A stretch of DNA of 64,000 nucleotides from Ottowia sp. (lineage in GTDB: Bacteria; Pseudomonadota; Gammaproteobacteria; Burkholderiales; Burkholderiaceae_C), in contig NZ_DAOMOQ010000014.1 of NCBI RefSeq assembly GCF_035444425.1, positions 5,630 to 69,629 on the forward strand, read 5' to 3'. Below are positions 33,916 to 53,547 of the stretch, in pieces (position 1 is the first letter of the stretch; every line of letters starts with the position of its first letter). Made by a program: the position numbers and the translations under genes. The notes beneath the pieces were generated by a model that searched no databases, had not been told where the DNA came from, and was given only the letters and a program-made list of their open reading frames with translations.

Positions 33916-33990
33916 TCAGCCCATCTTCACCGCCGTGCCGGTCACCGACACCAGCATCATGCCGTTGGTCTCGCCCAGCACCTCGTAGTC
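33916..33990 (-). pseudogene. 3' remnant (24 codons) of a YbjQ/UPF0145-like gene truncated by a transposon end
   Basis: Reads DYEVLGETNGMMLVSVTGTAVKMG-stop and abuts the GGGG of the IR at 33991 exactly on a codon boundary. Confidence 0.75.
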
Positions 33991-34028
33991 GGGGTCGTCT
34001 CAGAATTCGGAAAATAAAGCACGTTAAG
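33991..34028. mobile_element. 38-bp terminal inverted repeat of a Tn3-family (Tn21-subgroup) transposon
   Basis: GGGGTCGTCTCAGAATTCGGAAAATAAAGCACGTTAAG; the tnpA stop codon lies inside it. Confidence 0.93.
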
Positions 34029-34574
34029 CCGGTTGCAATGCTCGCAACGGCCTGAACTTGCCCGCGCCGATCTTGGCGCTGCTGCGCCAGAGGTAATCGC
34101 CGGTCAGGTTGATGTGTTCCCAGCCTAGCGGCGATAGGTACTGCAACAGCACATCATCGACGGCATGACCAGTGCCACGTAGCCCGTGTGTCGCCCGCTC
34201 CAAATAGACCGTATTCCACAGTACGATGGCCGCCGTCACCAGGTTGAGGCCGCTGGCCCGGTAGCGCTGCTGCTCGAAACTGCGGTCGCGGATTTCTCCC
34301 AGGCGGTTGAAGAACACGGCGCGCGCCAGTGCGTTGCGCGCTTCACCCTTGTTCAGCCCGGCATGTACGCGGCGGCGCAGTTCGACGCTTTGCAGCCAGT
34401 CCAGAATGAACAGCGTGCGCTCGATGCGCCCCAGCTCGCGCAGCGCTACGGCCAGGCCGTTCTGGCGCGGGTAGCTGCCGAGTTTCCTGAGCATCAGCGA
34501 GGCCGTCACCGTGCCCTGCTTGATCGAGGTGGCCAGCCGCAGGATTTCGTCCCAATGGGCGCGGACGTGCTTGA
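34024..34574 (-). pseudogene. tnpA: C-terminal fragment (about 184 codons) of a Tn3-family transposase
   Basis: [42 protein letters not shown] and [15 protein letters not shown]; interrupted at about 34575. Confidence 0.93.
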
Positions 34575-34682
34575 TGTTGATTTCCACGCAGAAGTGACCC
34601 ACTAACCCCCAGGATTTCCATCCAAACCTGACCCACGTACTAACCCTAACCTGCTGCTTTGTTGAGCAGCAGGAGACCAGGA

Positions 34683-36209
34683 GTGATAGACGTGGCAACA
34701 CTGAGTGTCATCAGGCGCTGGGCCCTGCGAGAGCAGTTGTCCATCCGAGAGATCGCCCGCCGCACGGGCCTCTCGCGCAACACCATCCGCAAGTACCTGC
34801 GCGCAGGCGAGGCCGAGCCGCACTATGCCAAGCGGGTCAGTCCATCCAAGCTCGATCCCTTCGCATCGAAGCTCTCGGGCTGGCTCAAGACGGAAGCTGG
34901 CCGATCCCGCAAGCAGCGGCGTACCGTCAAGCAGATGTACGCTGATCTGCAGGCCCTGGGCTATACCGGCTCCTACAACCGGGTTGCCGCCTTTGCCCGG
35001 CTGTGGCAAGAGCAGCGCGTGGTGGCCCAGCAGACCACCGGCCGCGGCACCTTCGTTCCCCTGGCCTTCGGCCCAGGTGAGGCCTTCCAGTTCGACTGGA
35101 GCGAGGACTGGGCAGTGCTGGCCGGAGTGCGCACCAAGCTGCAAGTGGCCCACTTCAAGCTCAGCCACAGCCGAGCGTTCTACCTGCGCGCCTATCCGCT
35201 GCAGACGCACGAGATGCTGTTTGACGCTCACAACCATGCGTTCGTAGTTCTGGGCGGTGTGCCCCGCCGTGGCATCTACGACAACATGCGCACCGCTGTA
35301 GACCGGGTGCGCCGTGGCAAGGAGCGCGACGTCAATGCGCGCTTTGCGGCCATGGTCAGCCACTTCCTGTTCGAGGCCGAGTTCTGCAATCCCGCGTCGG
35401 GCTGGGAGAAGGGCCAGGTGGAGAAGAACGTGCGCGACGCCCGCCATCGCTTGTGGCAGGTGGTGCCGCCATTCCCAGGCCTGACTGAGCTCAACGCCTG
35501 GCTTGAGGAGCGCTGCGTGGCCTTATGGAATGAGATCGAGCATGGCAAGTTGCCGGGCACCGTCGCGGATGTCTGGGCTCAAGAGAAGGCAACCTTGATG
35601 CCGATGCCTCGGCCCTTCGATGGCTTTGTGGAGCACACCAAGCGCGTCTCGCCCACCTGCTTGGTCCACTTCGAGCGCAACCGCTACAGCGTGCCGGCCC
35701 CGTATGCCAACCGGCCTGTAAGCCTGCGGGTCTACGCAGACCGCTTGGTGATTGCCGCCGAAGGCCAGATCGTGTGCGAGCACCAGCGCCTGATCGAGCG
35801 TAACCACCATGGTGCTGGGCTGACCGTCTACGACTGGCGCCACTACCTGGCGGTGCTGCAGCGCAAGCCCGGAGCCTTGCGCAATGGTGCTCCGTTCCTG
35901 GAGCTACCAGCGGCCTTCAAGCGACTGCAGGCCACCTTGCTCAAGCAACCCGGCGGCGACCGGGAGATGGTGGAGGTTCTGGCACTGGTGCTGCACCACG
36001 ACGAGCAGGCGGTACTCACCGCAGTGGAGCTGGCACTGGAGTCAGGTGCTGCCAGCAAGACCCACATCCTGAACGTGCTCCATCGCCTGCTGGACGGCAA
36101 GCCCGCTCCAGCACCGGTCACTTCGCCCCAGGCCCTCAAGCTGGCGGTGGAACCCCAGGCCAATGTGCTTCGCTACGACCAATTGAGGGAGGTGCGCTAT
36201 GCGTCATGA
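34683..36209 (+). CDS. istA: IS21-family DDE transposase IstA (508 aa)
   Basis: [35 protein letters not shown] and GWEKGQVE. Confidence 0.93.
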
Positions 36210-36416
36210 CCCTGCCATCGCTTCCATCGTGATCATGTTGCGCGAGCTCAAGATGCACGGTATGGCCCAGGCGGTTGCGGAACTGGCTGAGCAAGGTGCA
36301 CCGGCCTTCGATGCGGCACAGCCCATCCTGTCTCAACTGCTCAAGGCCGAGACCGCCGAGCGGGAGGTGCGCTCGGTAGCCTACCAATTGAAGGTGGCCA
36401 GATTCCCGGCGTACCG
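36199..36416 (+). pseudogene. istB: Truncated IstB (about 73 codons; ATPase domain absent)
   Basis: LRELKMHGMA...EREVRSVAYQLKVARFPAYR, then unrelated sequence; no Walker A motif. Confidence 0.88.
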
Positions 36417-36462
36417 GAGGGTCGGCCGTGATTCCTGCAAAATCCGCAGAAAGGAGGCTAAG
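36417..36462. mobile_element. Putative GAGGG-tipped Tn3-family terminal repeat (TnXax1/Tn4651-like lineage)
   Basis: GAGGGTCGGCCGTGATTCCTGCAAAATCCGCAGAAAGGAGGCTAAG begins exactly where istB homology stops, ends in CTAAG and sits next to tnpT/tnpS. The IR may be longer. Confidence 0.65.
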
Positions 36463-36620: not shown

Positions 36621-37610
36621 CTAGCGTTTGAGCACGGTCTTCATTTTGGACCGCGTCGCGGGCGTCTCAGTGTTGGCGCCCCCCTTGGGTAGGCGTGCTT
36701 TGAGCTGGACCAATAGGTCAGCCATGTCTTTTTGCAACTGCTCCTGGTGCGAGTGCGCCATCTGCAGATCCTCGCGTGCAGAAAGGATCTCACGGGCCAA
36801 GCCTGCGTTCTCGGCGATCAGGGCGCTGACCTGCACCCGAAGCGACTGGGCTTGCTCGTGCGAATCTGCCAACGACTTGGCCGCTTTTTTATTGTCATCT
36901 GCGAGCAAGAGGGTGACGCGCTTCAGTTCCTGCCGGGTCCTATCGACGTCCTCCAACAGCCGTCGTTCCTGAGCGGAAGCTCGTTGCTCCAGGCGCTCAC
37001 GCTCCTGCCGGTGCTCCTCGTTCAGCGCATTGAGGCGACCACGCTCGGCTTGCAACGCTTGCGTTGCCGCAGCATGCTGGGTGCGCACGGATTCAATGTC
37101 GGCGTCCCTACCCGCCAGCCCTTTTTGGAGGTCGGTGACCTGGCGCATCAGATCGGCGATCTGGTGATCCTTGGCCAGAAGCGCTGCGCCCAGTGCTTCC
37201 GAGCGCTCGTTCAACCGTTGCTGTTCTTGATCCAAGGCTGTTCGCTCGGCAGCGAGCCGCTCTACCAGCTTTTCCAGTGCGTCTCGATCGACCTGTACCG
37301 ATTGCGCCGCCTGCTCCTGGGCATGCTGCTGGGCGCGACCCCACAGCGCCTTGGCCACCCGCAGAACCGGTGCTGGCAGGGCGCCCTGCTCTCCGGTTCC
37401 CTCTTCGCCACCATTCGCGTCCAGTCGCTTGGCCAAAGAGCCGTACCAGGCATCGAGCATGGGCGCCACGGTGTTCGGCGACCCCCGGCCAAGGTACGCG
37501 CGCACGCGCTCGATCGTGGGCCGCTCACCCTGCGAGAGCACCGCATCGGCCGCGGCCCAAACCTCGTCGACCTGGACGCCTCGAGTGACTCTCGTACTTT
37601 TCATTTGCAT
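36621..37610 (-). CDS. tnpT: TnpT-like cointegrate-resolution helper (KfrA-type N-terminal DNA-binding domain plus coiled coil)
   Basis: VWAAADAVLSQGERPTIERVRAYLGRGSPNTV followed by a long E/Q/A/L-rich helical region; divergent from a tyrosine recombinase. Confidence 0.72.
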   Translation of the reverse strand: MQMKSTRVTRGVQVDEVWAAADAVLSQGERPTIERVRAYLGRGSPNTVAPMLDAWYGSLAKRLDANGGEEGTGEQGALPAPVLRVAKALWGRAQQHAQEQAAQSVQVDRDALEKLVERLAAERTALDQEQQRLNERSEALGAALLAKDHQIADLMRQVTDLQKGLAGRDADIESVRTQHAAATQALQAERGRLNALNEEHRQERERLEQRASAQERRLLEDVDRTRQELKRVTLLLADDNKKAAKSLADSHEQAQSLRVQVSALIAENAGLAREILSAREDLQMAHSHQEQLQKDMADLLVQLKARLPKGGANTETPATRSKMKTVLKR

Positions 37611-37637
37611 CGCCCTGCTTCAACGGTTAAATTACCA

Positions 37638-37698
37638 ACGATAAGGGATACTTATCGTGACTTATCGGCCAATTTCGTATCAAATCATACATAGTATG
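37638..37698. promoter_or_regulatory. Putative resolution (res) site between the divergent tnpT and tnpS
   Basis: ACGATAAG-GGATA-CTTATCGT (37638-58), a second ACTTATCG (37660-67) and CATAC-ATA-GTATG (37686-98), in an AT-rich spacer. Confidence 0.65.
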
Positions 37699-38795
37699 TG
37701 CGAGAAATATCCTTCAATCACCCTGCCCTGAACATGCGCCTGCCCATCCTCCAGAAAACCCCGGCCCTGCAGCCGCACGAGTTGAGCGATATGACCGCGC
37801 AGGCCGTGGCCGACCTGCTGCGCGAGGGCGAATCGCTCAACACGCAACTGAGCTACCGCAGCGCACTTCGATATTGGGCCGCCTGGTACGGGATCCGTTA
37901 CGGCGCGCAAATCAGCCTGCCGCTGCCCGCGGCCTGCGTGCTGCAGTTCATCGTCGACCACGCGCAGCGCACCACGCCCAAGGGCTTGGTGCACGAGCTG
38001 CCGGCGAAGATCGACGCCGCCCTGGTCGAGGCCGGCTACAAGGGAAAGACGGGACCGATGGCGCACAACACGCTGGTGCACCGCCTGGCCGTGCTCTCCA
38101 AAGCGCACAAGATGCGCGACGTGAAAAACCCCTGTCAGGACCCCAAGGTGCGCGAGCTGCTCTCGCGCACGCGCAAGGCCTACGCCAAGCGCGGCGAGTT
38201 GCCCAAGAAAAAAGACGCGCTGACCAAGGATCCGCTGCAGCTTGTGCTGGCCACCTGCGACGACACATTGAAAGGGAAGCGTGATCGTGCCCTCCTCCTC
38301 TTTGCTTGGGCCAGTGGTGGGCGCCGGCGCTCCGAAGTGGCCGCGGCCGACGTTAAATTTTTGAAGCGTCTGGCGCGGGGGGAGTTTTCTTACGAGCTCG
38401 CGTTCTCGAAAACGAACCAGAGTGGCGTCGACCGGCCCGAGAACCACAAGCCGGTGCTGGGTGCTGCGGGTGCTGCCCTGGAAGATTGGCTACTGATCAG
38501 CGGGATCCGCGAGGGCGCCCTCTTCCGTCGGGTGCTCAAGGGCGGCCACCTGGGTGGCCCGCTGTCGGCAGCGTCCGTGCGCGACATCGTTCAGGCGCGG
38601 TGTTTGTTGGCGGGTGTTGAGGGGGAGTTTTCTGCGCATTCGCTACGGTCGGGCTTTGTGACGGAAGCTGCCGCACAGAACGTCTCGATCGCTGACACGA
38701 TGGCGATGACAGGCCACCAGTCCGTGGCCGTGGTGCTCGGATACCAGCGCCGCGGTGGGCTTTCCAAAAACCCCGCTTCTAGTCTGCTGGCATAG
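37698..38795 (+). CDS. tnpS: Tyrosine recombinase, TnpS-like resolvase
   Basis: RDRALLLFAWASGGRRRSEV, SKT, HSLRSG, TGH and catalytic Tyr (LGY); the true start may be ATG 37734. Confidence 0.8.
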   Translation: MREISFNHPALNMRLPILQKTPALQPHELSDMTAQAVADLLREGESLNTQLSYRSALRYWAAWYGIRYGAQISLPLPAACVLQFIVDHAQRTTPKGLVHELPAKIDAALVEAGYKGKTGPMAHNTLVHRLAVLSKAHKMRDVKNPCQDPKVRELLSRTRKAYAKRGELPKKKDALTKDPLQLVLATCDDTLKGKRDRALLLFAWASGGRRRSEVAAADVKFLKRLARGEFSYELAFSKTNQSGVDRPENHKPVLGAAGAALEDWLLISGIREGALFRRVLKGGHLGGPLSAASVRDIVQARCLLAGVEGEFSAHSLRSGFVTEAAAQNVSIADTMAMTGHQSVAVVLGYQRRGGLSKNPASSLLA

Positions 38796-38821: not shown

Positions 38822-39081
38822 ATGATTTCCTCTGGCGGACTGGCCCATGCATTCGCCATGGACGCAGCGCAGTCCGAGGCCAAGCAGGTCATTTCGCTGC
38901 AGGGCGGCAAAAGCTCTACGTCTTCAAGGACGGCCTGATGGCGAAGGAAAGCAAGTTTGGACGTGCTATTCATCTCGGCAAGGGTGCCGTCATGCAGACG
39001 GCCGACGGGAAGAGCATCGCGACGATGGGCAACGAAGTCGCGCGTCTGTATGTCTTGCTGAACAAAGGCCATCACAACTGA
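38822..39081 (+). pseudogene. copK: CopK-like periplasmic copper-binding protein, frameshifted, with degenerate N-terminus
   Basis: One frame gives LAHAFA-MDAAQSEAKQVISLQGG; the -1 frame continues KLYVFKDGLMAKESKFG...MGNEVARL...KGHHN; the shift lies near 38905-38915. Confidence 0.7.
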
Positions 39082-39138
39082 GGCTGGCCACCTGCGCTCC
39101 TGCGGTCAAGGCTTCGCTGCATGCGAGCCAGACCTTCA

Positions 39139-39170
39139 AGACCTTCTCGTCAGTTCTGACGAGAAGGTCT
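39139..39170. terminator. Perfect 15-bp inverted repeat between the convergent copK and ATPase genes
   Basis: AGACCTTCTCGTCAG-TT-CTGACGAGAAGGTCT; no long U-tract, so the terminator role is tentative. Confidence 0.5.
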
Positions 39171-39195
39171 CTTCATTTGGACTTCTGCGTCCTAA

Positions 39196-41565
39196 TCACT
39201 CTTCCCGGATGACTGCGCCCCGCAACCGCAGCGCGTTGCCGATCACCGAGGCCGAGCTGAGGCACATGGCCAGCGCGGCGATCATGGGCGACAACAGCCA
39301 GCCGGTGAACGGGTACAGCAAGCCCGCGGCCAGCGGAATGCCCAGGGCGTTGTAGACGAAGGCGAAAGCCAGGTTCTGCTTCATGTTCTCCACCGTCGCC
39401 ACCGAGAGCGCGCGGGCCGTCGCAATGCCCCGCAGATCGCCCTTGACCAGCGTGAGTTGCGCGCTGTTCATCGCCACATCGGTGCCCGTGCCCATGGCAA
39501 TGCCCACATCGGTGCGGGCCAGTGCCGGCGCGTCGTTGATACCGTCACCGGCCATCGCGACCACGCGGCCCTCCGCCTGGAGTTTCTCCACGAGTTGGAG
39601 TTTGTCGGCGGGCTTCACTTCTCCGTGCACCTCGTCAATGCCCAGGCGTTGACCCACGGAGCGCGCGGTGGTGAGGCCGTCGCCGGTGGCCATGATCACG
39701 CGGATGTTCGCCTGGCGCAGCGAGGCCAGTGCGTCCGCCGTGGTGGTCTTGACCGGGTCGGACACCGCCAGCAGACCGGCCAGCGCTTGGTTCACCGCGA
39801 GAAACATGACGCTGGCGCCCTGTGCGCGCAGTGCTTCGGCCTGGGCGGCCAGGGGCGCGACGTCCACCCCCAGCTGTTGCATCAGCGCCGTGTTGCCCAA
39901 GGCCAGGGGCTTGCCGCTCACAACACCCTTGACCCCGATGCCGGACTCGGAGTCGAACTGCTCGGGCTTGTCGAGTGTGAGCCCCTGTTGCTTTGCTGCG
40001 GCCACGATGGCGGCGGCCAGCGGGTGTTCGCTGCCCTGGTCCAGGCTGGCGGCGAGGCGCAAGACCTCGTCTTCGGGGACGCTCCCGTGTCCGATGGCAC
40101 GCTCGAAGGTGGGGCGGCCTTCGGTCAGCGTGCCCGTCTTGTCGACGATCAGTGTGTCGACCTTGCGCAGGTTTTCGATGGCGGCGGCGTCGCGAAACAA
40201 GACGCCGTTGGTGGCGCCGCGCCCGGTCGCCACCATGATGGACATGGGCGTCGCCAGGCCCAACGCACAGGGGCACGCGATGATCAACACGGCCACCGCA
40301 TTGATGAGTGCGTAGACCCAGCTCGGCTCGGGTCCGAACAGACCCCAGCCGAAGAAGGTGACCAGTGCCGCGACCACGACACCCACGACAAAGTAGCCCG
40401 CCACCTGGTCGGCCATGCGCTGCATGGGCGCGCGCGAACGCTGGGCCATGGCAACCATCTGCACGATCTGCGAGAGCACGGTATCCGAGCCCACGTGCTC
40501 GGAGCGCATCACCAATGCACCGCTGGTGTTGAGCGTGGCGCCGATCAGCTTGTCACCGACCCGCTTGGTCACCGGCAGCGGCTCGCCCGTGAGCATCGAT
40601 TCGTCGAGTGCGCTGCTGCCCTCGACCACGGTGCCGTCGGTCGGCACCTTTTCGCCGGGGCGCACACGCAGCAGGTCGCCCACATGCACATGGGCCAGCG
40701 GCACGTCTTCTTCCTGCCCGTCGGCCGCGATGCGCCGCGCGGTCTTGGGCGCCAGACCCAGCAGCGAGCGGATGGCGGCCGAGGTTTGGGACCGTGCCTT
40801 GAGTTCCAGCAGCTGACCCAACAAGGTCAGCGAGATGATCACCGCCGCCGCTTCGAAGTACACCGACACCCGCCCCATCGACACAAAGGAGTCGGGGAAC
40901 ACCTGCGGCGCCACCGTGGCCACCACGCTGTACACAAACGCCGAACCGGTGCCCAGACTGATCAGCGTCCACATGTTGGGGCTGCGGTTCACGATCGACT
41001 GCGCGCCGCGCACAAAGAATGGCCAGCCGGCCCACAGCACGATCGGCACGGTCAGCACCAGCTCGATCCAGCTCTGTGTGGTCATGTCGAACCAGCCGAG
41101 GTTGTGGCCGAACATCGCCAGCACGGCGACCACCACCGTGAGCGGCAAGGTCCACCAGAACCGCCGCTGGAAGTCCACCAGCTCGGGGTTCTCCTCAGCG
41201 TCCAGTTCGGGCATGACCGGCTCCAGCGACATGCCGCATTTGGGACAGTTGCCCGGGTGGTCCTGCCGGATCTCCGGGTGCATGGGACAGGTGTAGAGCG
41301 TGCCGGGCTTGCCCTGCGGCGCGGGCGTTGGGGCTGCGTGACGCCCCACCTCGGCGTGAACAAACCGGGCCGGTTCGGCCGCAAACCGGGCTTGGCACTT
41401 CGCGCTGCAGAAATAGTAGGGCTGCCCCGCGTGCTCCAGGTGGTGTGGCGACTGCTCGGTGACCGCCATCCCGCACACGGGATCTTTCAGCCCGGTCGCA
41501 GGATGAAGTGGTTTTGACGCGCCGTTGGGGTGGCCGGCATGGTCGTGTTTTGCTTGTGTGTCCAT
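39196..41565 (-). CDS. copA: Cu(I)/Ag(I)-type P1B-ATPase with YHS and heavy-metal-binding N-terminal domains (789 aa)
   Basis: KDPVCGM..YFCS (YHS), [38 protein letters not shown] and MCLSS. Confidence 0.92.
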
Positions 41566-41759
41566 GTCTTTCCCTTCCTGGAAATTTCGAAACCCCGTGG
41601 TGCCAAACACCATCTTCCTCTCAATGGCGCGATGTGACGGAGCGCATTGGCACTTGGTGCACGTGAACGCCGCGCATGCAGGCCAGAAGGTCAACTGAGG
41701 TTGCCCCTGAAAAGTGGAGTTCTTAGCCCTTGTTGAAAATACCGACAAGGAGTTCAGAG

Positions 41760-42092
41760 ATGAGTGAAAAGCAGGTGCGTGCGCAGTACACGCGAGAGTT
41801 CAAGCTGGAGGCTGTTCGGCAGGTGCGCTCGGGTCAGCCGATTGCGGTGGTGGCCAAGGTACTGGGCATCCCCAAAGCGAGCCTGGGCAACTGGGTGCGG
41901 CTGTCAGCCAAGGGAGAATTGGACGGTGCGGGCGGTGGTGACAAGAGCATCCAAGTCTCGCCCGAGAAAATGGAGATTGCTCGGCTGCGCGCCGAGAATG
42001 CCCGGCTTCGCATGGAGCGTGACGTTGCAAAAAAAGCCGCGGCGTACTTCGCGCAGGACACGCTGCGAGGTACGCCTGGATTCACCAAATGA
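41760..42092 (+). CDS. IS3-family OrfA
   Basis: [33 protein letters not shown] zipper, and an A7G slip site at 42029-36. Confidence 0.9.
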
Positions 42093-42958
42093 GAAAGCTG
42101 TATCCGGTGAGTGTGTCCTGCGGTGTGCTGGAGGTGAGCGCGAGCGGGTACTTCAACTGGCTGCGCCGAGGCGAGTCTGGCCACGGTGGCCCTGGCCGGC
42201 GCTACAGCGACGAAGCCTTGCTGGCGCACATTCGTGCCATCCACGCCCAGGTCAAGGGCGAATACGGCTGGCCACGCATGCACAAGGAACTGCTGGCCCG
42301 AGGCATCCGTGTGGGCAAAGACCGGGTTCGCAAGCTCATGCAGCAGCACGCCATCAAGGCCAGGACGAAACGCAAGTTTGTGGTCACCACCGACAGCAGA
42401 CACAGCCTGCCGGTGGCGCCCGACCTGGTGCAGCGGCGCTTCAAGCCCGAGGAGCCCAACCAGCTCTGGAGTGGCGACATCACCTACATCCAGACCGACG
42501 AGGGCTGGCTGTACCTGGCTGCGGTCATCGACCTGTTCAGCCGTCAGGTGGTGGGCTGGAGCCTGCAGCCGCACATGCAGGCGGGCTTGGTCAAGGACGC
42601 GCTGGCCATGGCGTGGTGGCGCCGTAGACCGCCTCCTGGGGTGATATTCCACAGCGACCGGGGCAGCCAGTATTGCAGCGCAGAGTTCCAGCAGGCCCTG
42701 AAGAACTGGGGCATCCAATCATCGATGAGCCGCAAGGGGAACTGTTGGGACAACGCACCGACGGAAAGCTTCTGGGGGCGGCTGAAAACCGCCAGCGTGC
42801 ATGGGTGCAAATTCGCCACCCGTGAGCAGGCAAGTCAGGCGGTGATGGACTGGATGGCCTTCTACAATCACCGAAGGTTGCATTCGTCACTGGGCTACCT
42901 CAGCCCGATGCAATACGAGCAGCGCTGGTACGAGGCACAGCGTAAAAAGGCCGCGTGA
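42089..42958 (+). CDS. IS3-family OrfB (DDE); the OrfAB fusion would form by -1 frameshift
   Basis: WSGDITYI, FHSDRGSQY and GNCWDNAPTES; the -1 frame is open from the slip site (...[10 protein letters not shown]). Confidence 0.92.
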   Translation: MRKLYPVSVSCGVLEVSASGYFNWLRRGESGHGGPGRRYSDEALLAHIRAIHAQVKGEYGWPRMHKELLARGIRVGKDRVRKLMQQHAIKARTKRKFVVTTDSRHSLPVAPDLVQRRFKPEEPNQLWSGDITYIQTDEGWLYLAAVIDLFSRQVVGWSLQPHMQAGLVKDALAMAWWRRRPPPGVIFHSDRGSQYCSAEFQQALKNWGIQSSMSRKGNCWDNAPTESFWGRLKTASVHGCKFATREQASQAVMDWMAFYNHRRLHSSLGYLSPMQYEQRWYEAQRKKAA

Positions 42959-43021
42959 ATCGTGGGTTAAGAACTACACGAAACAGGGGCAAGGTCACAC
43001 CTCACCCTGAAGCATTGCACC

Positions 43022-43132: not shown

Positions 43133-43718
43133 CCAGCAGTGGTATTTCGGGATGAAGCTGCACATTGGCGTGGACAGCCGCACCGGGCTGGCGCACAGCG
43201 CTGTGGTGACAGCAGCCAACGTGCACGACAAGCACCCGCTGCCCGATCTGCTGCACGGCAATGAGCAGCGTGTGTATGGCGACAGTGCCTACGCCAGCCA
43301 GAAGGCGTTGATCGGATCGAAGGCCCCCAAAGGCCCGGGACTTCACCAACCAGCGCGTGCGGAGGGGCGGCGAGATCGACGAGGCTGAGCGATCCAGGAA
43401 CCACAACAAGTCCAAGGTCCGCGCCCGGGTCGAACACGTCTTCGCTGTGGTCAAACGGCTCTGGGGCTTTGCCAAGGTGCGCTACCGGGGCCTGGCCAAG
43501 AACGCCACGCGCTCGTTTGTGGTGCTGGGTCTGGCCAACATCCACCTGGCGCGCCAGCGCCTCGTGGCATGAGTGCGCCCGCAGCGGGCGCCAAGGGCGG
43601 ATGAAGACGCCCAGAAGGGTCTCAGGTCGCCTCAGAATGCGTGATTCGCCGACCTAATCCCGCATGTCGAAATCGGCCAGCGAGGTTCGTTGAGATCTAC
43701 GGCTTGTTCAGCGCAGCC
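43133..43718 (+). mobile_element. IS5-family remnant: frameshifted 3' transposase fragment plus right end
   Basis: [21 protein letters not shown], an extra A near 43329-31, then VRARVEHVF..KVRYRGLAKN (stop 43572); end CTTGTTCAGCGCAGCC followed by TTAA. Confidence 0.85.
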
Positions 43719-44455
43719 TTAAATCCGCCGCCTGTCGCCGCGGCGGCCTGGCGGGTCAGGATGTCGCAGGTCAGGCGGATATGGGCTTCCAGCGCCAGCG
43801 CGGCGCGGGCCTCCTGCCGCGCCATCGCCGCGAGAAAGATGCTCTCGTGCTCGGCGTGCACATCGCGGTCGAAGCCCGGCGTGGCGCCGATGCGGATGGC
43901 GATGTGGCGGTAGCGCTCGCCGTGGCGGTAGAGGATGTCCAGCAGGTGCCGCGTCCAGGGTGAGCTGTGGCCCGCGATCAGGGTTTCGTGGAAGTGGCGG
44001 TTGGCGCGCTCCCACTGGTCCGGGTCGCGGCCGGCGCCGCCCTCCTCGGCCACGCTGAGCCGTGCAAAGGCCCCGCGCACCGAGCGCTCCCAGCCCGCGT
44101 CGCCGAGCCGGATCGACTGGCGCAGCGCTTCGGTTTCCAGCCGCACGCGGGTGTCGGTCAGGTCGCGCAGATCGTCCAGCGAGACCGCGCTGACGCGGTA
44201 GCCGCGCTGGCCTTCGACCGTGACCAGCGCGTCGGACACCAGCAGCGCCAGCGCCTCGCGCAGCGTGCCGGCGCCCACGCCGTAGTGGTCCTTGAGGTGC
44301 TCGACGCGCAGGCGCTGGCCCGGCTGCAGATCGCCACACACGATGTCGTGACGCAGCGCCCGGTAGGCGCGTTCGGTGAGGGTGCGCGGCTCGGGTTCGT
44401 CGCTGCGCGGCGCGGGGCCGGCGGCGTGTGCGGGTTGAAGCAGGTCTTGCAGCAT
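43697..44455 (-). CDS. GntR/FCD-family regulator (AphS/PhcS-like repressor position)
   Basis: LQPGQRLRVEHLKDHYGVGAGTLREAL wHTH and an FCD domain; immediately downstream of the DmpR-type gene; last codons lie in the IS5 end. Confidence 0.85.
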   Translation of the reverse strand: MLQDLLQPAHAAGPAPRSDEPEPRTLTERAYRALRHDIVCGDLQPGQRLRVEHLKDHYGVGAGTLREALALLVSDALVTVEGQRGYRVSAVSLDDLRDLTDTRVRLETEALRQSIRLGDAGWERSVRGAFARLSVAEEGGAGRDPDQWERANRHFHETLIAGHSSPWTRHLLDILYRHGERYRHIAIRIGATPGFDRDVHAEHESIFLAAMARQEARAALALEAHIRLTCDILTRQAAAATGGGFKAALNKP

Positions 44456-44465
44456 GGTGATGACC

Positions 44466-46145
44466 TCAATCGGCTTCCTGTTGATGCTGGCGTTTGAGCC
44501 GGTAGGCCAGCTGCGCGCGGCTCAGACCCAGCAGGCGGGCGGCGCCGGCCAGATTGCCGCGGCTGCGCTCGACCGCCAGGGCCAGCACCTGCGCCTCCAG
44601 GGTCTCGATCGGCACGCCGGCATCGAGCACCTGCGCGCACAGGCGCAGCTCGTCCTCGGGCGCACGGCGCGCCAGCCGGCCCTGCGGGTCGATGCCGTCC
44701 TGCGCCGGCTCGGACTGGTTGGGGAACAGGTGCTCGACCTCGATCACGCCGCCCTGCGCCGCCAGGATCACGCCGCGCTCGACCAGGTTCTCCAGCTCGC
44801 GCACGTTGCCGGGCCAGCGGTGGCGAGCCAGCGCTTGCAGCGCGCGGTCGCTGAAGCCGCCCAGGCGCTTCTGGTGCAGCGCGGTGAAGCGCGCCAGCAG
44901 GTGCCGAGCCAGCGGCTCGATGTCGCTGCTGCGTTCGCGCAGCGGCGGGATGCAGATCGGGTAGACGTTGAGGCGGTAGAACAGGTCGCGCCGGAACTGC
45001 CCGCGTTCGACCGCGGCTTCGAGGTTGACGTTGGTCGCCGTCACGAGGCGCACGTTGACCTTGCGCGCGCTCTCGCTGCCCAGGCGCTCGATCTCGCCCT
45101 CCTGCAGCACGCGCAGCAGCTTGGCCTGCGCCGGCAGCGACATGTCGCCCACCTCGTCGAGGAACAGCGTGCCGCCTTCGGCCCGCTCGAAGCGGCCGGC
45201 CCGCGCCGCGTGGGCACCGGTGAAGGCGCCCTTCTCGACGCCGAACAGCTCGGCCTCGATCAGCTCGGCCGGCAGCGCCGCGCAGTTGACCGCCACGAAC
45301 GGCCCGGCGGCGCGCTCGGAGTGTTCGTGCAGTGCGCGCGCGAAGCGCTCCTTGCCCACGCCGGTCTCGCCGGTGAGCAGCACCGTCACCTGCGTCGCCG
45401 CGGCGCGGCGCATCAGGTCGTGCGCGTGCTGGAAGCCCGGCGAGGAGCCGACCAGCATGCCACCCGACTCGGCCGGCTCCAGCGTGTTCTTCAACGCCTC
45501 GACCTGCTGGCTCAGCGCGGCCATCTTCTCCAGCAGCGAGTCGTCCTCGAAGTACTGGCGGTGCGCGTCACCGTCGGGCCACTCGTCGATCGGCCGGCCT
45601 TCGATCAGGCAATGGTCGTCGCCGCAGGCCGAACACTTCGTCTCCTTGTACAGGATCAGCCGGCCCATGAAGGCGCTGGTGTAGCCGCTCGCGTAACCCA
45701 GCAGGGTCCAGCAGGCCGGCTCGTCGACCACGCCGTATTGCAGCCGGTGCGCGTGCGCCTCCCAGGAGTCGTCCCAGCGGAACACGCCCTCGAAGCGGCC
45801 GGCCGCGGCGTCCATCTCCAGCCGCACCGGCGTGACGCGCGCCGCGCCTTCGAGCATGTGCAGCTGCGGCCCGACCAGGAACATGTCTTCCAGTGTCTTC
45901 TTGCCGCGCGTCTTGGCCGCGAAGCCCGCATCGTGCAGGCCGCAGGCATAGCCCATGCGCGTGAGCAGGCGCCGCGCGTGGTCCTTGCCGACCGAGGTGA
46001 TGAGGTCGTGGCGCAGCGCCGTCAGCGCCGCGGTGTGCAGCAGCACCATGCGCCGCTCGCCCAGCCAGATGGCGCCGCTGTGCGGCTCGAAGCGCAGCAG
46101 CCGGCGCAGGTCGTTGTCGGGCGGGTAGGTCAGATGGGGGTCCAA
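44466..46145 (-). CDS. dmpR: Sigma54-dependent phenol-responsive activator, DmpR/XylR family (TTG start)
   Basis: XylR_N/V4R sensor ([28 protein letters not shown]), [31 protein letters not shown] and a Fis HTH. Confidence 0.92.
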
Positions 46146-46240
46146 AGGTGTCTCCGGTGGGTCGCTCTGCGGCGACTGGAATCTCGATATTTTCCGCCAC
46201 GCTCCCCCAGATCGACAAGCCGGCGAAGCAGTGCCTGAAA

Positions 46241-46256
46241 TTGATCATTTGATCAC
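46241..46256. promoter_or_regulatory. Putative DmpR/XylR upstream activating sequence
   Basis: TTGATCATTTGATCAC matches 14 of 16 positions of the recalled consensus TTGATCAATTGATCAA; a weaker site lies near 46273-88. Confidence 0.7.
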
Positions 46257-46429
46257 TCGCGGCCAAAAGCGCCTCATCAAATCAAGACTTTTCCTTCGTG
46301 CTGCACCGCAACAGCTCAAGAAACAGGCTATCGAAGAGTGCCGGGCGATCCGGATGCTGCGCTGCACACCGGCTTTTTCATCAGGGATTTCCCTGAAATA
46401 TCGAGATTTTTGGCCCGACCCGGTCGGAC

Positions 46430-46444
46430 TGGCACGCCATCTGC
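46430..46444 (+). promoter_or_regulatory. Sigma54 -24/-12 promoter of the phenol hydroxylase operon
   Basis: TGGCAC-GCCAT-CTGC with GG-N10-GC spacing, 44 nt before the first ATG. Confidence 0.85.
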
Positions 46445-46487
46445 GAGAGGGGACGCGTCCGACAACGCACCGACCGCCCCCAGCACC

Positions 46488-46688
46488 ATGCCCCAGACCA
46501 CCGACACCTCCCTGCCCGCCGTCGACACCTCGCTGCGCTTCGTGCGGGTGATCGAACGCCGTGCCGACGGCCTGGTCGCCTTCGAGTTCTCGATCGGCTG
46601 GCCGGAGCTGGCGGTGGAGCTGATGCTGCCGGCCTCGGCCTTCGAGGCCTTCTGCGCCAACAACCGGGTGCAGCGTCTGGACACCTGA
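46488..46688 (+). CDS. dmpK: Phenol hydroxylase assembly subunit (K/P0, 66 aa)
   Basis: VAFEFSIGWPELAVELMLP..AFEAFCANN. Confidence 0.9.
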   Translation: MPQTTDTSLPAVDTSLRFVRVIERRADGLVAFEFSIGWPELAVELMLPASAFEAFCANNRVQRLDT

Positions 46689-46734
46689 GTTCCCGAGAGC
46701 CGTTCAACAACCATTCCAACGGAGATAAGCACCG

Positions 46735-47730
46735 ATGAACATCGACCTGCAGGCGCGGGAGATCACGCCGCTGCGCCAGACCTACGCCCACGTGGCGAAA
46801 TACATCGGCGGCGACAAGACCGCCAGCCGCTACCAGGAGGCCACCTTCGGCGCTCAGCCGATGGTCAACTTCCACTACCGGCCGACCTGGGACCCGGGCC
46901 ACGAACTCTTCGACGCCAGCCGCAGCAAGATCGTGCTGGCCGACTGGTACGTGCTCAAAGACCCGCGCCAGTTTTATTACGCCACCTGGACCATGACCCG
47001 CGCCAAGCAGCAGGACGCGATGGAGGCCAACTTCCAGTTCGTCGAGCAGCGCGGCATGGTCGGCAAGATGCCCGACGGCGTGCGCGAGAAGGCCCTGACG
47101 GTGCTGATGCCGCTGCGCCACGCGGCCTGGGGCGCCAACATGAACAACGCGTCCATCTGCGCCTACGGTTTTGGCACTGCCTTCACCGCGCCGGCCATGT
47201 TCCACGCGATGGACAACCTGGGTGTGGCGCAGTACCTGACCCGCCTGGGCCTGGTGCTGGGCGAGCCGCAGTCGCTGGAAGACGGCAAGCAGGCCTGGCT
47301 GGACGCCCCCGAGTGGCAGGGCCTGCGCCGGCTGGTCGAGGACAGCTTCGTGGTCAGCGACCCGTTCGAGCTGTTCGTGGCGCAGAACTTCGCGCTCGAC
47401 GGCCTGCTGTACCCGCTGATCTACGGTGGCTTCGTGGACGACCACGTCGCCCTGCAGGGCGGCACCGCGGTCGCGATGCTGACCAGCTTCATGCCCGAGT
47501 GGCACGACGAAACCGCGCGCTGGATCGACGCCGTCATCAAGGCCGCGGGCGCCGAATCGGACGCCAACAAAGCCCTGCTGCGCGGCTGGGCCGGCCACTG
47601 GATGGACCGCGCCCAGGCCGCCCTCTCGCCCATCGCCCGCCTGGCCCTGGGCGAGACCGGAGAAACCGTGTTGAGCGACGCCCGCGTGCAGCTGCAGGCG
47701 CGCCTGGCCAAGACCGGCGTCACCACCTGA
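46735..47730 (+). CDS. dmpL: Phenol hydroxylase beta subunit (L/P1)
   Basis: ASRYQEAT, FHYRPTWDP, KDPRQFYY and AWGANMNN. Confidence 0.95.
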   Translation: MNIDLQAREITPLRQTYAHVAKYIGGDKTASRYQEATFGAQPMVNFHYRPTWDPGHELFDASRSKIVLADWYVLKDPRQFYYATWTMTRAKQQDAMEANFQFVEQRGMVGKMPDGVREKALTVLMPLRHAAWGANMNNASICAYGFGTAFTAPAMFHAMDNLGVAQYLTRLGLVLGEPQSLEDGKQAWLDAPEWQGLRRLVEDSFVVSDPFELFVAQNFALDGLLYPLIYGGFVDDHVALQGGTAVAMLTSFMPEWHDETARWIDAVIKAAGAESDANKALLRGWAGHWMDRAQAALSPIARLALGETGETVLSDARVQLQARLAKTGVTT

Positions 47731-47755
47731 CCAGGCCTGAACAGGAGACCACAAC

Positions 47756-48025
47756 ATGTCCGACGTATTCATCGCCTTCCAGCACAACGAAGAGTCCCGT
47801 CCGGTGATCGACGCCATCGTGGCCGACAACCCGAACGCGGTGCTGACCCACCCGACCGGCCTGGTCAAGATCAACGCGCCCGGCAGCCTGACCATCCGCC
47901 GCGAAACCATCGAGGGCCTCACCGGTCGCCCCTACGACCTGCAGGCCATCCACGTCAACCTCGTCACCCTCTCGGGCTACATCGACGAGGACGACGACCA
48001 GCTCACGCTGAGCTGGAAACACTGA
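47756..48025 (+). CDS. dmpM: Phenol hydroxylase regulatory subunit (M/P2)
   Basis: IDAIVADNP and VNLVTLSGYIDEDDD. Confidence 0.93.
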   Translation: MSDVFIAFQHNEESRPVIDAIVADNPNAVLTHPTGLVKINAPGSLTIRRETIEGLTGRPYDLQAIHVNLVTLSGYIDEDDDQLTLSWKH

Positions 48026-48048
48026 ATCACGAGCAGAAGGAGACACGC

Positions 48049-49611
48049 ATGGACACGAGAGTTGCGAGCAAGAAGCTCGGCCTGAAAGAACGCTACGCCG
48101 CCATGACGCGCGGCCTGGGCTGGGAGACCAGCTACCAGCCGATGGACAAGGTGTTCCCGTACGACAAGTACGAGGGCATCAAGATCCACGACTGGGACAA
48201 GTGGCAGGACCCGTTCCGCCTGACCATGGACGCCTACTGGAAGTACCAGGGCGAGAAGGAGAAGAAGCTCTACGCCGTCATCGAGGCCTTCGCGCAGAAC
48301 AACGGCCAGCTCGGCGTGTCCGACGCGCGCTACGTCAACGCGCTCAAGCTGTTCATCCAGGGCGTGACGCCGCTGGAGTACTACGCGCACCGCGGCTTCG
48401 CCCATGTGGGCCGCCAGTTCACCGGCGAAGGCGCCCGCGTCGCGGCGCAGATGCAGTCCATCGACGAGCTGCGCCACTACCAGACCGAGACGCACGCGAT
48501 CAGCCACTACAACAAGTACTTCAACGGCATTCACCACTCGAACCACTGGTACGACCGCGTGTGGTACCTGTCGGTGCCGAAGTCCTTCTTCGAAGACGCC
48601 TGCACCAGTGGTCCGTTCGAGTTCCTCACCGCCGTCAGCTTCAGCTTCGAGTACGTGCTGACCAACCTGCTGTTCGTGCCCTTCATGAGCGGCGCGGCGC
48701 ACAACGGCGACATGTCCACCGTCACCTTCGGCTTCTCGGCGCAGAGCGACGAGAGCCGCCACATGACGCTGGGCATCGAGTGCATCAAGTTCATGCTGGA
48801 GCAGGACCCGGACAACGTGCCCATCGTGCAGCGCTGGATCGACAAGTGGTTCTGGCGCGGCTACCGCCTGCTGACCCTGGTCGCGATGATGCAGGACTAC
48901 ATGCTGCCCAAGCGCGTGATGAGCTGGAAGGAAGCCTGGGAGATGTACGCCGAAGAAAACGGCGGCGCCCTGTTCAAGGACCTGGCGCGCTACGGCATCC
49001 GCGAGCCGGCCGGCTGGAAGCAGGCCTGCGAAGGCAAGGACCACATCAGCCACCAGACCTGGGCCACCTTCTACAACTACAACGGCGCCGCCCCGTTACA
49101 CACCTGGGTGCCCAAGGAAGACGAACTGGCCTGGCTGAGCGAGAAGTACCCCGAGACCTTCGACAAGTACTACCGCCCGCGCTGGGAGTTCTGGCGCGAC
49201 CAGGCCGCCGAAGGCAAGCGCTTCTACAACAAGACGCTGCCGATGCTGTGCACCACCTGCCAGATCCCGATGCTGTTCACCGAAGAGGGTGACCCCAGCA
49301 AGATCTGCTACCGCGACAGCGACTACAAGGCCTACAAGTACCACTTCTGCAGCGACCACTGCAAGAGCATCTTCGACCACGAGCCCGAGAAGTACGTGCA
49401 GAGCTGGCTGCCGGTGCACCAGATCTACCAGGGCCACTGCTTCCCCGAAGGCACCGACCCGACCGCCGAGGGCTTCGACCCGCTGATGGCCGTGTTCAAG
49501 TACTACGAGATGGAAGTCGGCCGCGACAACTTCGACTTCGAAGGTTCGGAAGACCAGAAGAACTTTGCCGCCTGGAAGGGCGAGCCCCTGGTGCAAGGAG
49601 AGCAGAAATGA
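48049..49611 (+). CDS. dmpN: Phenol hydroxylase alpha (diiron) subunit (N/P3)
   Basis: DELRH and DESRH diiron motifs; YHS-like C-terminus (FCSDHC). Confidence 0.97.
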   Translation: MDTRVASKKLGLKERYAAMTRGLGWETSYQPMDKVFPYDKYEGIKIHDWDKWQDPFRLTMDAYWKYQGEKEKKLYAVIEAFAQNNGQLGVSDARYVNALKLFIQGVTPLEYYAHRGFAHVGRQFTGEGARVAAQMQSIDELRHYQTETHAISHYNKYFNGIHHSNHWYDRVWYLSVPKSFFEDACTSGPFEFLTAVSFSFEYVLTNLLFVPFMSGAAHNGDMSTVTFGFSAQSDESRHMTLGIECIKFMLEQDPDNVPIVQRWIDKWFWRGYRLLTLVAMMQDYMLPKRVMSWKEAWEMYAEENGGALFKDLARYGIREPAGWKQACEGKDHISHQTWATFYNYNGAAPLHTWVPKEDELAWLSEKYPETFDKYYRPRWEFWRDQAAEGKRFYNKTLPMLCTTCQIPMLFTEEGDPSKICYRDSDYKAYKYHFCSDHCKSIFDHEPEKYVQSWLPVHQIYQGHCFPEGTDPTAEGFDPLMAVFKYYEMEVGRDNFDFEGSEDQKNFAAWKGEPLVQGEQK

Positions 49612-49964
49612 GCGTCGTCGCCATCGCCCCCTACGAGTTCACGCCCAGGGATGTGCGCGAGAACTTCCCCGCCCCGCTGCTCTACATCGGCTGGGAAGAC
49701 CACCTGATGTTCTGCGCCCCCGTCTGCCTGCCGCTGCCGCCGGACACCCCGTTCGGCGCGATGTCGGCCGCGGTGCTGCCCGGCATCTACGGTTACCACC
49801 CGGACTTCGCCAGGATCGACTGGGCCCGGGCCGAGTGGAAGAAGAACGGCCAGCCCTGGACGCCCGACCCGGCCAAGTCGCTGGCCGAGAACGGCCTGGT
49901 GCACAAGGACGCGATCCGCTTCAGAACCCCTGGGCTCACAGGGATCAAAGGTTCGTTCAGCTGA
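49608..49964 (+). CDS. dmpO: Phenol hydroxylase gamma subunit (O/P4)
   Basis: LYIGWEDHLMFCAP and HKDAIRFRTPGL. Confidence 0.93.
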   Translation: MSVVAIAPYEFTPRDVRENFPAPLLYIGWEDHLMFCAPVCLPLPPDTPFGAMSAAVLPGIYGYHPDFARIDWARAEWKKNGQPWTPDPAKSLAENGLVHKDAIRFRTPGLTGIKGSFS

Positions 49965-49971
49965 TCCGGCC

Positions 49972-51033
49972 ATGAGCTACCAACTGACGATCGAGCCGCT
50001 GGGCGCGACCATCGAGGTCGAAGAAGGCCAGACCGTGCTGGACGCGGTGCTGCGGCAGGGTCTCTACCTGCCGCACGCCTGCGGCCACGGCCTCTGCGGC
50101 ACCTGCAAGGTGCAGGTCTGCGATGGCGAGGTGGACCACGGCGCGGCCAACCCGTTCGCGCTGATGGACTTCGAGCGCGACGACGGCAAGACCCTGGCCT
50201 GCTGCGCCACGCTGCAGGCCGACACCACCATCGAGGCCGACATCGACGAGGAACCCGATGCGCGCGTGATCCCGGTGCGCGACTTCGCGGCCACGGTCAG
50301 CCGCGTCGAGGACCTCACGCCCACCATCAAGGCGATCCACCTGCAGCTGGACAAGGCCATCGACTTCCAGGCGGGGCAGTACGTGCAGGTGGAAATCCCG
50401 GGTGTGGGCAGCCGCGCCTTCTCGATCGCCAATCAACCCGCCGACGTGGCCGCCACGAAGGGCATCGAGCTCAACGTGCGCAAGCTGCCCGGCGGCGCCG
50501 GCACCACCTGGCTGCACGAGCAGCTCAAGGCCGGCGACCGCCTGCGCGTGGCCGGCCCCTACGGCCGTTTCTTCGTGCGCGAGTCGGCGCGCCAGCCGAT
50601 GCTGTTCATGGCCGGCGGCTCGGGGCTGTCGAGCCCGCGCTCGATGATCGCGGACCTGCTCTCGCGCGGCTGCACGCTGCCCATCACCCTGGTCTACGGA
50701 CAGCGTTCGCACGAGGAGCTGTACTACGACGCCGAGTTCCGCGCGCTCGCCGAACAGCACGCCAACTTCTCGTACGTGCCGGCGCTCTCGCACGAGCCCG
50801 AGGGCTCGGACTGGGACGGCTTCCGCGGCTTCGTGCACGAAGCGGCCAAGGCGCATTTCGGCGGCAGCTTTGTGGGCCAGAAGGCCTACCTGTGCGGGCC
50901 GCCGCCCATGATCGAGGCCTGCATCTCCACCCTGATGCAGGGCCGCCTGTTCGAGCGCGACATCTACACCGAGAAGTTCCTCTCGGCGGCCGACGCGCAG
51001 GCCGCCCGCAGCCCGCTGTTCAGGCAGGTCTGA
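49972..51033 (+). CDS. dmpP: Phenol hydroxylase reductase (P/P5; 2Fe-2S, FAD, NAD)
   Basis: CGHGLCGTC, RAFSIA, GPYG, AGGSG and YLCGPPPM. Confidence 0.96.
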   Translation: MSYQLTIEPLGATIEVEEGQTVLDAVLRQGLYLPHACGHGLCGTCKVQVCDGEVDHGAANPFALMDFERDDGKTLACCATLQADTTIEADIDEEPDARVIPVRDFAATVSRVEDLTPTIKAIHLQLDKAIDFQAGQYVQVEIPGVGSRAFSIANQPADVAATKGIELNVRKLPGGAGTTWLHEQLKAGDRLRVAGPYGRFFVRESARQPMLFMAGGSGLSSPRSMIADLLSRGCTLPITLVYGQRSHEELYYDAEFRALAEQHANFSYVPALSHEPEGSDWDGFRGFVHEAAKAHFGGSFVGQKAYLCGPPPMIEACISTLMQGRLFERDIYTEKFLSAADAQAARSPLFRQV

Positions 51034-51940
51034 GGCCGTTGCCGCCCTTCGTTTCGCTCTTCCCATGCGCACGCACCACCTCCAGGAACATGGCCAGCAC
51101 CGGCGACGGATCGCCGCGCCGGTAGAGGCAGCTCAGCTCCAGGTCCTTGAGGTGGCGGCTGCGCAAGGGCACGAACACCACGCCCGGCAGGCGCAGGCTG
51201 GCGGCCGACCGGGTGGCGATGGTCAGCCCGAAGCCACTGGCCACCAGGGCCACGGCCGTCACCACGTCCTCGACGTCCTGCTCGACCGCCAGCCGCACGC
51301 CTTCCTGGCGGAAGGCCTCGGCCACTTCCTGCGCCAGCCCGTGGATGGCCTCGTTGGGGTAGAGGATCATGGGCAGCCCGTCGAGGTCGGCCATCCCGAC
51401 CTGCCTGCGCTGCGCCAGCGGGTGCGCTTCGTGCATCGCCACCAGCAGCGGCTCGCGCAGCACCGACTCGACCACCAGGTCCGGCTCGGGCGGGATCAGG
51501 CGGTTGAAGCCCACGCTGATGCGCCGTTCGCGCAGCGCCTGCAGCTGCTCGGACTTGGTGAGGTTGTGCAGCGCGATGCGCACCTCGGGCCGCTGCGCGT
51601 GGAACTTCGCGAGCACGCGGGGAATGACGTCCAGCACGCCCGAGCCGTAGATGCCCACGTCGAGCTGGCCGGTCAGGCCCTGCGCCGCGCGCCGCGTGCG
51701 CTCGGCCGCGCGCTGCGCCAGGTGCAGCAGGTTGGGCACCTCGTCCAGCAGCGTCTGGCCCGCCTCGGTCAGCTCCACGCCGGCCGGTGCGCGCAGGAAC
51801 AGCGGCGCCCCCATCTCGTCTTCCAGCGCCTTGATCTGGCGCGACAGCGGCGGCTGCGCCATGTGCAGGCGCTCGGCCGCGCGGGTGAAGTTGCGCTCTT
51901 CGGCGACCGCCAGAAACTGGCGCATGTCCTTGAGATCCAT
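51020..51940 (-). CDS. LysR-family regulator, CatR/BenM/AphT-like (306 aa)
   Basis: MRQFLAVAEERNFTRAAERLHMAQPPLSRQI; divergent from the meta operon and convergent with dmpP (14-bp overlap). Confidence 0.9.
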   Translation of the reverse strand: MDLKDMRQFLAVAEERNFTRAAERLHMAQPPLSRQIKALEDEMGAPLFLRAPAGVELTEAGQTLLDEVPNLLHLAQRAAERTRRAAQGLTGQLDVGIYGSGVLDVIPRVLAKFHAQRPEVRIALHNLTKSEQLQALRERRISVGFNRLIPPEPDLVVESVLREPLLVAMHEAHPLAQRRQVGMADLDGLPMILYPNEAIHGLAQEVAEAFRQEGVRLAVEQDVEDVVTAVALVASGFGLTIATRSAASLRLPGVVFVPLRSRHLKDLELSCLYRRGDPSPVLAMFLEVVRAHGKSETKGGNGLRPA

Positions 51941-51963
51941 GAGGCCTCCTGGTTCGGTTCGCA

Positions 51964-52028: not shown

Positions 52029-52066
52029 TGGCAGCTGGAGCTGCTGCGTTGAAGAAGAACTGAGAC

Positions 52067-52438: not shown

Positions 52439-52459
52439 CCAACCACCAGGAGACACAAC

Positions 52460-53511: not shown

Positions 53512-53547
53512 TCGAACTGGCTCCCCCTCCTTCTCATTGTTCTTCTG

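Follow-up and report, generated by a model that had tools for sequence, protein, structure and literature searches.

We analysed 64,000 nucleotides of Ottowia sp. DNA (NCBI RefSeq assembly GCF_035444425.1, contig NZ_DAOMOQ010000014.1, C14:5630-69629). This whole stretch is called the window, and positions are those of the window unless a contig is named. Positions 33,991 to 36,462 hold the left ends of three mobile elements, each cut by the start of the next: a Tn3-family transposon of the Tn21 subgroup, an insertion sequence (IS) of the IS21 family, and a second Tn3-family transposon with a GAGGG tip and genes for a TnpS/TnpT resolvase. The outermost end abuts a fragment of the chromosomal gene ybjQ. 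The stretch very probably forms the left margin of a single large composite Tn21-subgroup transposon inserted in ybjQ, of which at least 39 kb are assembled.

Three stacked ends beside ybjQ

The features of this edge, read from left to right, are the following.

33916..33990, minus strand: 3′ stub of ybjQ/UPF0145 (last ~25 codons), a conserved chromosomal target, cut exactly at the inverted repeat (IR)
33986..33990: TAGTC, left copy of the 5-bp target duplication of the composite (right copy in the contigs L072, L076, L078 and L079 of sister assemblies)
33991..34028, plus strand: IRa, 38-bp terminal IR at the tnpA end of a Tn21-subgroup (Tn3-family) transposon, from the sequence and a relative on plasmid pPRO2
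34024..34580, minus strand: tnpA stub, C-terminal 184 codons of ~990, from PF01526, NF033527 and nucleotide identity
34575..36416, plus strand: left 1.84 kb of an ISAlsp1-like IS21-family element, 93% nucleotide identity to a complete Delftia copy
34683-36209, plus strand: istA, intact IstA transposase (NF033546, 328 bits; cut-off 160)
36199-36416, plus strand: istB remnant of 72 codons (NF038214, positions 1-62 of 232 only)
36417..36462, plus strand: terminal IR of ~46 bp (GAGGG...CTAAG) on the tnpT side of a TnpS/TnpT-type Tn3-family transposon, from the shared tip
36621..37610, minus strand: tnpT, helper protein of the TnpS/TnpT resolvase (KfrA_N, E 4e-21)
37611..37733: tnpT-tnpS intergenic region, predicted rst resolution site, from the divergent gene layout and the literature
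37734..38795, plus strand: tnpS, tyrosine recombinase of 353 aa according to sister gene calls (L048; Phage_integrase, E 1.5e-10)

The outermost repeat, IRa (GGGGTCGTCTCAGAATTCGGAAAATAAAGCACGTTAAG), has the GGGG...TAAG form, occurs once in the window and shows 3 mismatches with IRa of pPRO2. The tnpA stub that reads into it covers the last 165 positions of PF01526 (225-389, E 2e-69) and positions 790-954 of NF033527. Its DNA is ~91% identical to tnpA of the TnAs3/ISPa38 type, and this homology ends at 34580. The genome holds no further match to PF01526, and a full-length TnpA of the Tn21 subgroup was not found there.

The IS21-family element that interrupts tnpA starts at 34575 with the left tip TGTTGATTTCC. 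A complete copy on the Delftia IncP plasmid NZ_CP065667 is 93% identical, begins with the same tip in an unrelated flank and carries the inverse tip at the opposite end. In the window, the element stops inside istB. The rest of istB is absent from the genome, and no right IR of the element was found in the window or in the genome. Complete members of the family have two terminal IRs (TG...CA) and a target duplication. Transposition of IS21 elements uses a junction of the right and left IRs, which an element devoid of its right IR is unable to form.

The junction between tnpA and this element contains six nucleotides, TGTTGA (34575-34580), which are assignable to either partner because the uninterrupted tnpA already reads ...CTCAACATCAAGCAC... 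The preliminary description, made from the sequence of the window, had noted this overlap and suggested that the target may have resembled the end of the IS. The sharing of TGTTGA by tnpA and the IS tip was borne out. As evidence for targeting, the overlap was rejected: two other IS21-family insertions in Tn21-type tnpA genes (Delftia and Achromobacter plasmids) occupy other positions, the Delftia junction has none, and a second IS21-family element of the composite, described below, overlaps its flank by 3 nt. The 6-nt overlap is thus real and without explanation. On these two IncP-1 plasmids (L002 5488-5883; L019 5945-6862), a Tn21-type tnpA is interrupted in its C-terminal third by an IS21-family element, at other positions and in the orientation opposite to that of the window. 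This part of tnpA may be a recurrent target region for the family.

The third element begins at 36417 with GAGGGTCGGCCGTGATTCCTG..., its repeat terminating in TAAG. GAGGG tips are known in TnXax1, TnPa43 and TnTin1 (PMC4337579). The 21-nt tip starts 24 other ends in Burkholderiales genomes (GTDB), with a different outer flank each time, and two complete pairs among those ends have inverted partners and 5-bp duplications. Beyond the tip lie the divergent tnpT and tnpS genes; in described systems, the rst site is located between tnpS and tnpT (PMC7157771). The tnpT/tnpS block shares 83.5% nucleotide identity with an end region of a 20.5-kb element that is complete on the Hydrogenophaga plasmid NZ_CP044976. 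An exact protein look-up with TnpT gave no match.

Overall, the three stacked left ends, with cuts at 34575 in tnpA and at 36416 in istB, were confirmed to the base by the tips of relatives and by profile matches, and all three face right, as first described. The successive insertions proposed at that time also stand: every junction coincides exactly with the true tip of an element, as successive insertion expects, and is therefore transposase-made. Within the window, none of the three elements has its partner end; all three interiors extend rightwards.

This staircase of truncated ends recurs elsewhere. The open reading frame (ORF) across the istB/GAGGG junction, IstB′ (91 aa), occurs on 12 public contigs (JGI, ENA, Logan) from at least 10 samples, and all 12 show the same staircase and gene order at 99.7-100% identity to the window. 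Since this ORF recurs with a constant gene order, the staircase is not a one-off product of assembly. An independent contig of 30.9 kb (L050) is 100% identical to the window across the 12.4 kb compared, up to window position 46474; from its length, it would be expected to terminate where C14 terminates.

C14 stops 936 nt past the window, inside the first 55 nt of the IR of IS1071 (C14:70511-70565, equivalent to window positions 64882-64936), and the body of IS1071 is absent from this assembly. The assembly consists of 81 contigs (3.33 Mb), the shortest of 3994 nt, and a partner is lacking for 99 of the 162 contig ends. It contains no 5′ part of ybjQ, no rest of tnpA or istB, and no second Tn3-family transposase. 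With no contig below 3994 nt and so many unpaired ends, such absences from this assembly count for little.

The right border and a second insertion in metY

The right border was reached in sister assemblies, by searching with proteins encoded on the far side, both chromosomal and transposon-borne. Intact ybjQ, identified by Pfam YbjQ_1 in sister contigs, continues in same-genus relatives as ...CTCGTAGTC/GAAGTCGATGCC (slashes mark the boundaries), with metY just upstream on that strand. In sister assemblies 99.96-100% identical to the window, an inverted partner of IRa and the 5-bp duplication are both present. The border reads ...CTGAGACGTCCCC/TAGTC/GAAGTCGATGCC, that is, the partner Tn21-type IR (IRb), TAGTC and the 5′ part of ybjQ. 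Thus both outer IRs are retained and the composite is flanked by a TAGTC duplication.

Four contigs (L072, L076, L078 and L079) give the order of this side. In the orientation of the window, they run from the N-terminal stub of the tnpA of the GAGGG-tipped element (~64 codons) through a second IS21-family element, a truncated macB (macB′, 210 codons), a membrane fusion protein (MFP) gene and tetR to IRb, TAGTC, the 5′ part of ybjQ and an intact metY. Since tetR has a GTG start, an exact protein look-up with TetR gave no match. L072 extends into genome contig C77 at 99.96% identity. Synteny with a same-genus genome, G007, gives the downstream chromosome order as C77, C70, and does not reveal the border itself. 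Walking outward from an IS5-family element beside the Metallophos gene was uninformative, this being a very widespread IS. As a separate observation, G007 carries a truncated ybjQ of its own (C1:3715614-3715700, L017), whose homology stops ~8 nt past the insertion point of the window and gives way to unrelated genes. Therefore, this small gene was hit independently.

The second IS21-family element is ~73% identical to that of the window and lies in reverse orientation. It links codon ~64 of the GAGGG tnpA straight to the truncated macB of the parent transposon. Complete GAGGG elements match the tnpA stub on its left at 98% DNA identity over the beginning of their tnpA; upstream of this stub, one contig contains a long perfect palindrome (GGATAGGTGACCAGTTATGGG ... 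CCCATAACTGGTCACCTATC; L059 430-560). Elsewhere in the genome, contigs C13 and C32 both break off, at their right ends, in the last 55 nt of the second IS21-family element, so that another copy of it, whose own contig was filtered out, probably lies between them.

From the stacked left ends, a mirror series had been predicted for the right border, assuming no deletion: a CCCTC end, TACCG with the rest of istB, the right IR of the IS, the rest of tnpA, then the Tn21 IR and TAGTC. The outermost part was found as predicted, in the sister assemblies. In contrast, the inner parts are missing: the segment from IRb to the GAGGG tnpA stub contains neither a CCCTC end nor TACCG with the rest of istB, and it has no right IR of the IS and no remainder of the parent tnpA. 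Likewise, tnpR and res are absent between IRb and the second IS21-family element. No CCCTC second IR was found in the window, among the 24 GTDB ends or on JGI metagenome contigs, and the predicted CCCTC+TACCG junction is absent from the same GTDB ends and from the JGI metagenome contig scan. The three alternative sets of mobilisable ends envisaged in the preliminary description are thus reduced to a single pair, because the second IS21-family element joins the GAGGG tnpA directly to truncated macB. For the two inner elements, the outcome is the one which that description had set against its own prediction, a deletion-made mosaic whose missing halves are absent.

The same composite was also found 677 bp further right, inside metY, in JGI samples. 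There, it is flanked by a TGCAG duplication, with the left junction reading ...GTGCTGC/TGCAG/GGGGTCGTC (L048, L049, L052) and the right junction ...GACGTCCCC/TGCAG/GAACTGG (L058, L059, L070). One sample contains the empty metY site (L060). In each insertion variant, the site of the other is unoccupied and has a single pentamer; the contigs of the metY variant keep one TAGTC in an intact ybjQ. Contig breaks internal to metY in four assemblies were also considered as one structural junction; they did not fit and probably reflect strain variation.

The two copies are nearly identical. On the right side, 2 of 5956 nt are different. On the left side, L048 shows no difference from the window over ~7.5 kb outside a patch in the tnpA stub. 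In that patch, L048 has 25 differences at 34117-34225 and L049 has 30, reaching 34381, with an exact match downstream. Either gene conversion by another Tn21-type tnpA or a mixing of sequences during metagenome assembly could account for the patch (34117-34381). All internal junctions are common to both copies, and the rearrangements are therefore older than both insertions.

Proposed history and alternatives

A complete transposon of the parental type, ~9.5 kb long, is found on pPRO2 of Pelobacter propionicus (NC_008608, 1372-10856; NCBI tnpA type TnAs3/ISPa38). Its order is IRa-tnpA-tnpR-OMP-cytochrome c-ABC-macB-MFP-tetR-IRb, OMP standing for an outer membrane protein gene. The composite shares with it the asymmetric IR pair, GGGGTCGTC at the tnpA end and GGGGACGTC at the tetR end, as well as the 5-bp duplication and a tnpA that reads into the IR. 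The piece from IRb through tetR and MFP to macB′ is 99.3-99.4% identical to pPRO2. Relative to pPRO2, the breakpoints of the composite fall at pPRO2 positions 1959 and 8386; therefore, 6.4 kb of the parent are missing. They comprise the N-terminal ~805 codons of tnpA, tnpR and res (present in the parent; pPRO2, L077), the OMP, cytochrome c and ABC ATPase genes and half of macB. Foreign elements totalling at least 35 kb now occupy their place. In DNA, the tnpA stub shares only 85% identity with tnpA of pPRO2, as compared to 91% for the TnAs3 type, and the two ends of the composite may therefore come from a hybrid parent.

On this basis, we propose the following history. A parent of the pPRO2 type, ordered IRb-tetR-MFP-macB-ABC-cytochrome c-OMP-tnpR-tnpA-IRa, would first have received an ISAlsp1-like IS21-family element in its tnpA. 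The GAGGG-tipped TnpS/TnpT transposon, bringing copper genes, would then have entered the istB of that element. A deletion by the second, unrelated IS21-family element, either as an adjacent deletion or by recombination between two copies, would finally have taken out the remainder of the GAGGG tnpA and the right IR of that transposon, the remainder of istB and the right IR of the IS and, in the parent, the first ~805 codons of tnpA together with tnpR/res and the efflux genes as far as the middle of macB. Such a deletion would leave the left staircase without an inner mirror. A single deletion anchored on the second IS21-family element is the simplest account, and it would explain the loss of all inner mirror halves at once.

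Both copies share the internal junctions and the tnpA of each is the 184-codon stub. Therefore, the composite most likely transposed as a unit after the staircase had formed, with a Tn21-type transposase acting in trans. The intact tnpT-rst-tnpS module might resolve the cointegrates, replacing the lost tnpR/res.

Several points weigh against this reading. The right border is known from sister assemblies, and the genome of the window has no such contig. No full-length Tn21-type tnpA is present in this assembly, hence no donor in trans was seen. Two insertions 677 bp apart in 3.3 Mb are rare by chance (~4e-4), and their proximity is without explanation. No contig joins the IS1071 end of the window to the Metallophos-tnpA′ side. 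Moreover, the order and number of deletion events are not recoverable.

The two copies could also have arisen without any transposition of the composite. The intact parent would have inserted at both sites by means of its own TnpA, and the rearranged interior would have spread between them by homologous recombination. The end segments are long enough for this (585 bp at IRa and 2.5 kb at IRb). Patches dense in single-nucleotide polymorphisms, typical of recombination tracts, occur in the chromosomal flanks and in the tnpA stub, and the lack of a trans source of TnpA in the assembly would fit as well. However, this course requires more events and is less economical, the 677-bp proximity is still left without explanation, and none of the sister contigs met has an intact parent at either site. 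We consider it unlikely.

Fully nested insertions without loss, giving a right border with three mirror ends in order and three usable end pairs, agree with the flush left junctions at true element tips and with the existence of the outermost mirror, IR plus TAGTC. Yet the sister contigs are continuous from IRb through tetR-MFP-macB′ and the second IS21-family element to codon ~64 of the GAGGG tnpA, with the inner pieces missing. These pieces are absent from the genome as well, and CCCTC+TACCG is absent from the GTDB ends and JGI contigs. The nested scheme is therefore very improbable.

An equally poor case can be made for chimeric joins across repeats, by which the staircase or the two variants would be artefacts of metagenome assembly. 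The genome does resemble a filtered metagenome bin, as judged from its unpaired contig ends and its lack of small contigs, and L049 follows a different path past the IS3-family element of the cargo. However, the three junctions do not lie at repeats that are multi-copy in this genome, and SPAdes, MEGAHIT, JGI and Logan assemblies all show them in identical form. Misjoining cannot produce the exact 5-bp duplications of both variants together with their reciprocal empty sites.

Least probable of all is a single insertion, in metY, followed by a transposase-made 677-bp adjacent deletion flush with IRa: as compared to L048, the window does lack precisely 677 nt between TAGTC and IRa, but the right junction should then have stayed in metY, whereas window-type contigs have metY intact and pass from IRb through the matching TAGTC into the 5′ part of ybjQ, and the unoccupied, single-pentamer sites that each variant shows for the other rule the model out.

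Unit transposition of a composite with TnpA supplied in trans remains our preferred reading. By extension, a transposase-less composite of at least 40 kb, with copper and most likely phenol genes, could still be hopping in a bioreactor-type community, driven by TnpA in trans and resolved by TnpS/TnpT-rst. The landings 677 bp apart would then reflect a local hot spot or a short-range hopping undescribed for the subgroup. We put this forward tentatively, as a possibility that we rather doubt.

The locus gives a base-by-base view of how an island of catabolic and metal-resistance genes is assembled: insertions stack at one end, and a single IS-linked deletion would erase the other. It suggests that such a wreck may stay mobile while its outermost IR pair survives. 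For annotation, it calls for caution: truncated ends stacked on one side give no warrant for a matching series on the other. For ecology, it offers a phenol and copper island, dated by identity, at two sites in one chromosomal background and in several public metagenomes. The moderately interesting part is the evidence for recent mobility of a large composite without a transposase of its own.

Cargo and known relatives

To the right of tnpS, the window contains the following.

38938-39081, plus strand: copK, part of the copper block (38938..41748)
39196-41748, minus strand: P1B-type copper ATPase, part of the same block
41696..42997, plus strand: IS3-family IS (orfA/orfB), a block boundary, without flanking direct repeat
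43697..64000: phenol hydroxylase and meta-cleavage cluster, with GntR, DmpR-like and LysR regulators (Pfam)

The copper block directly follows tnpS in every sister contig reaching that far, and it is 89.6% identical in nucleotides to a plasmid of Hydrogenophaga sp. BPS33. The phenol cluster runs on to the IS1071 IR at the contig end. Further IS breakpoints in the cargo are those of the IS3-family element, an IS5-family remnant and IS1071. The phenol genes most likely belong to the composite, judging from the topology and the matching duplications. Between the IS3-family element and the GntR gene (~43150-43720), the gene calls of L050 include short DDE_Tnp_1 (IS5-family) fragments. L049 departs from the IS3-family element into another region of the chromosome, which matches genome contig C7 at 95.8% identity.

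All components belong to described families. The IncP-1 plasmid NZ_CP053984 of Achromobacter pestifer carries the same IS1071-associated block, IS3-GntR-DmpR-phenol hydroxylase-meta, at 97-99.96% nucleotide identity. It likewise has an IS21-family element in a Tn21-type tnpA, with the junction elsewhere and in the opposite orientation. The right flank of the IS3-family element is common to both; in contrast, the left flank differs, and in the Ottowia contig the terminal hydratase gene is cut by IS1071. No direct repeat flanks the IS3-family element in the window or on this plasmid.

The interrupting IS resembles the ISAlsp1/ISThsp10-type elements of Delftia and Alicycliphilus plasmids, with 91-93% nucleotide identity, the same left tip and an istA that overlaps istB; unlike them, the copy of the window ends inside istB and has no right IR. 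The third element shares with TnXax1, TnPa43, TnTin1 and TnXca1, which have a Tn4651-like resolution system, GAGGG in place of GGGG and the divergent tnpT and tnpS. Its IR is ~46 bp long, as compared to 92 bp in TnXax1. The closest complete relative is the 20.5-kb element of NZ_CP044976, which has both IRs. In contrast to complete GAGGG relatives, the copy of the window has one IR and ~64 codons of tnpA, the latter visible only in sister contigs.

Mobile insertion cassettes between TnXax1 IRs have no tnpA of their own and were proposed to move via a related transposase (PMC4337579). Like these cassettes, the composite consists of passenger DNA between cognate IRs without a working tnpA. Unlike them, it measures tens of kilobases, is of Tn21-subgroup descent and has kept a foreign resolution module.

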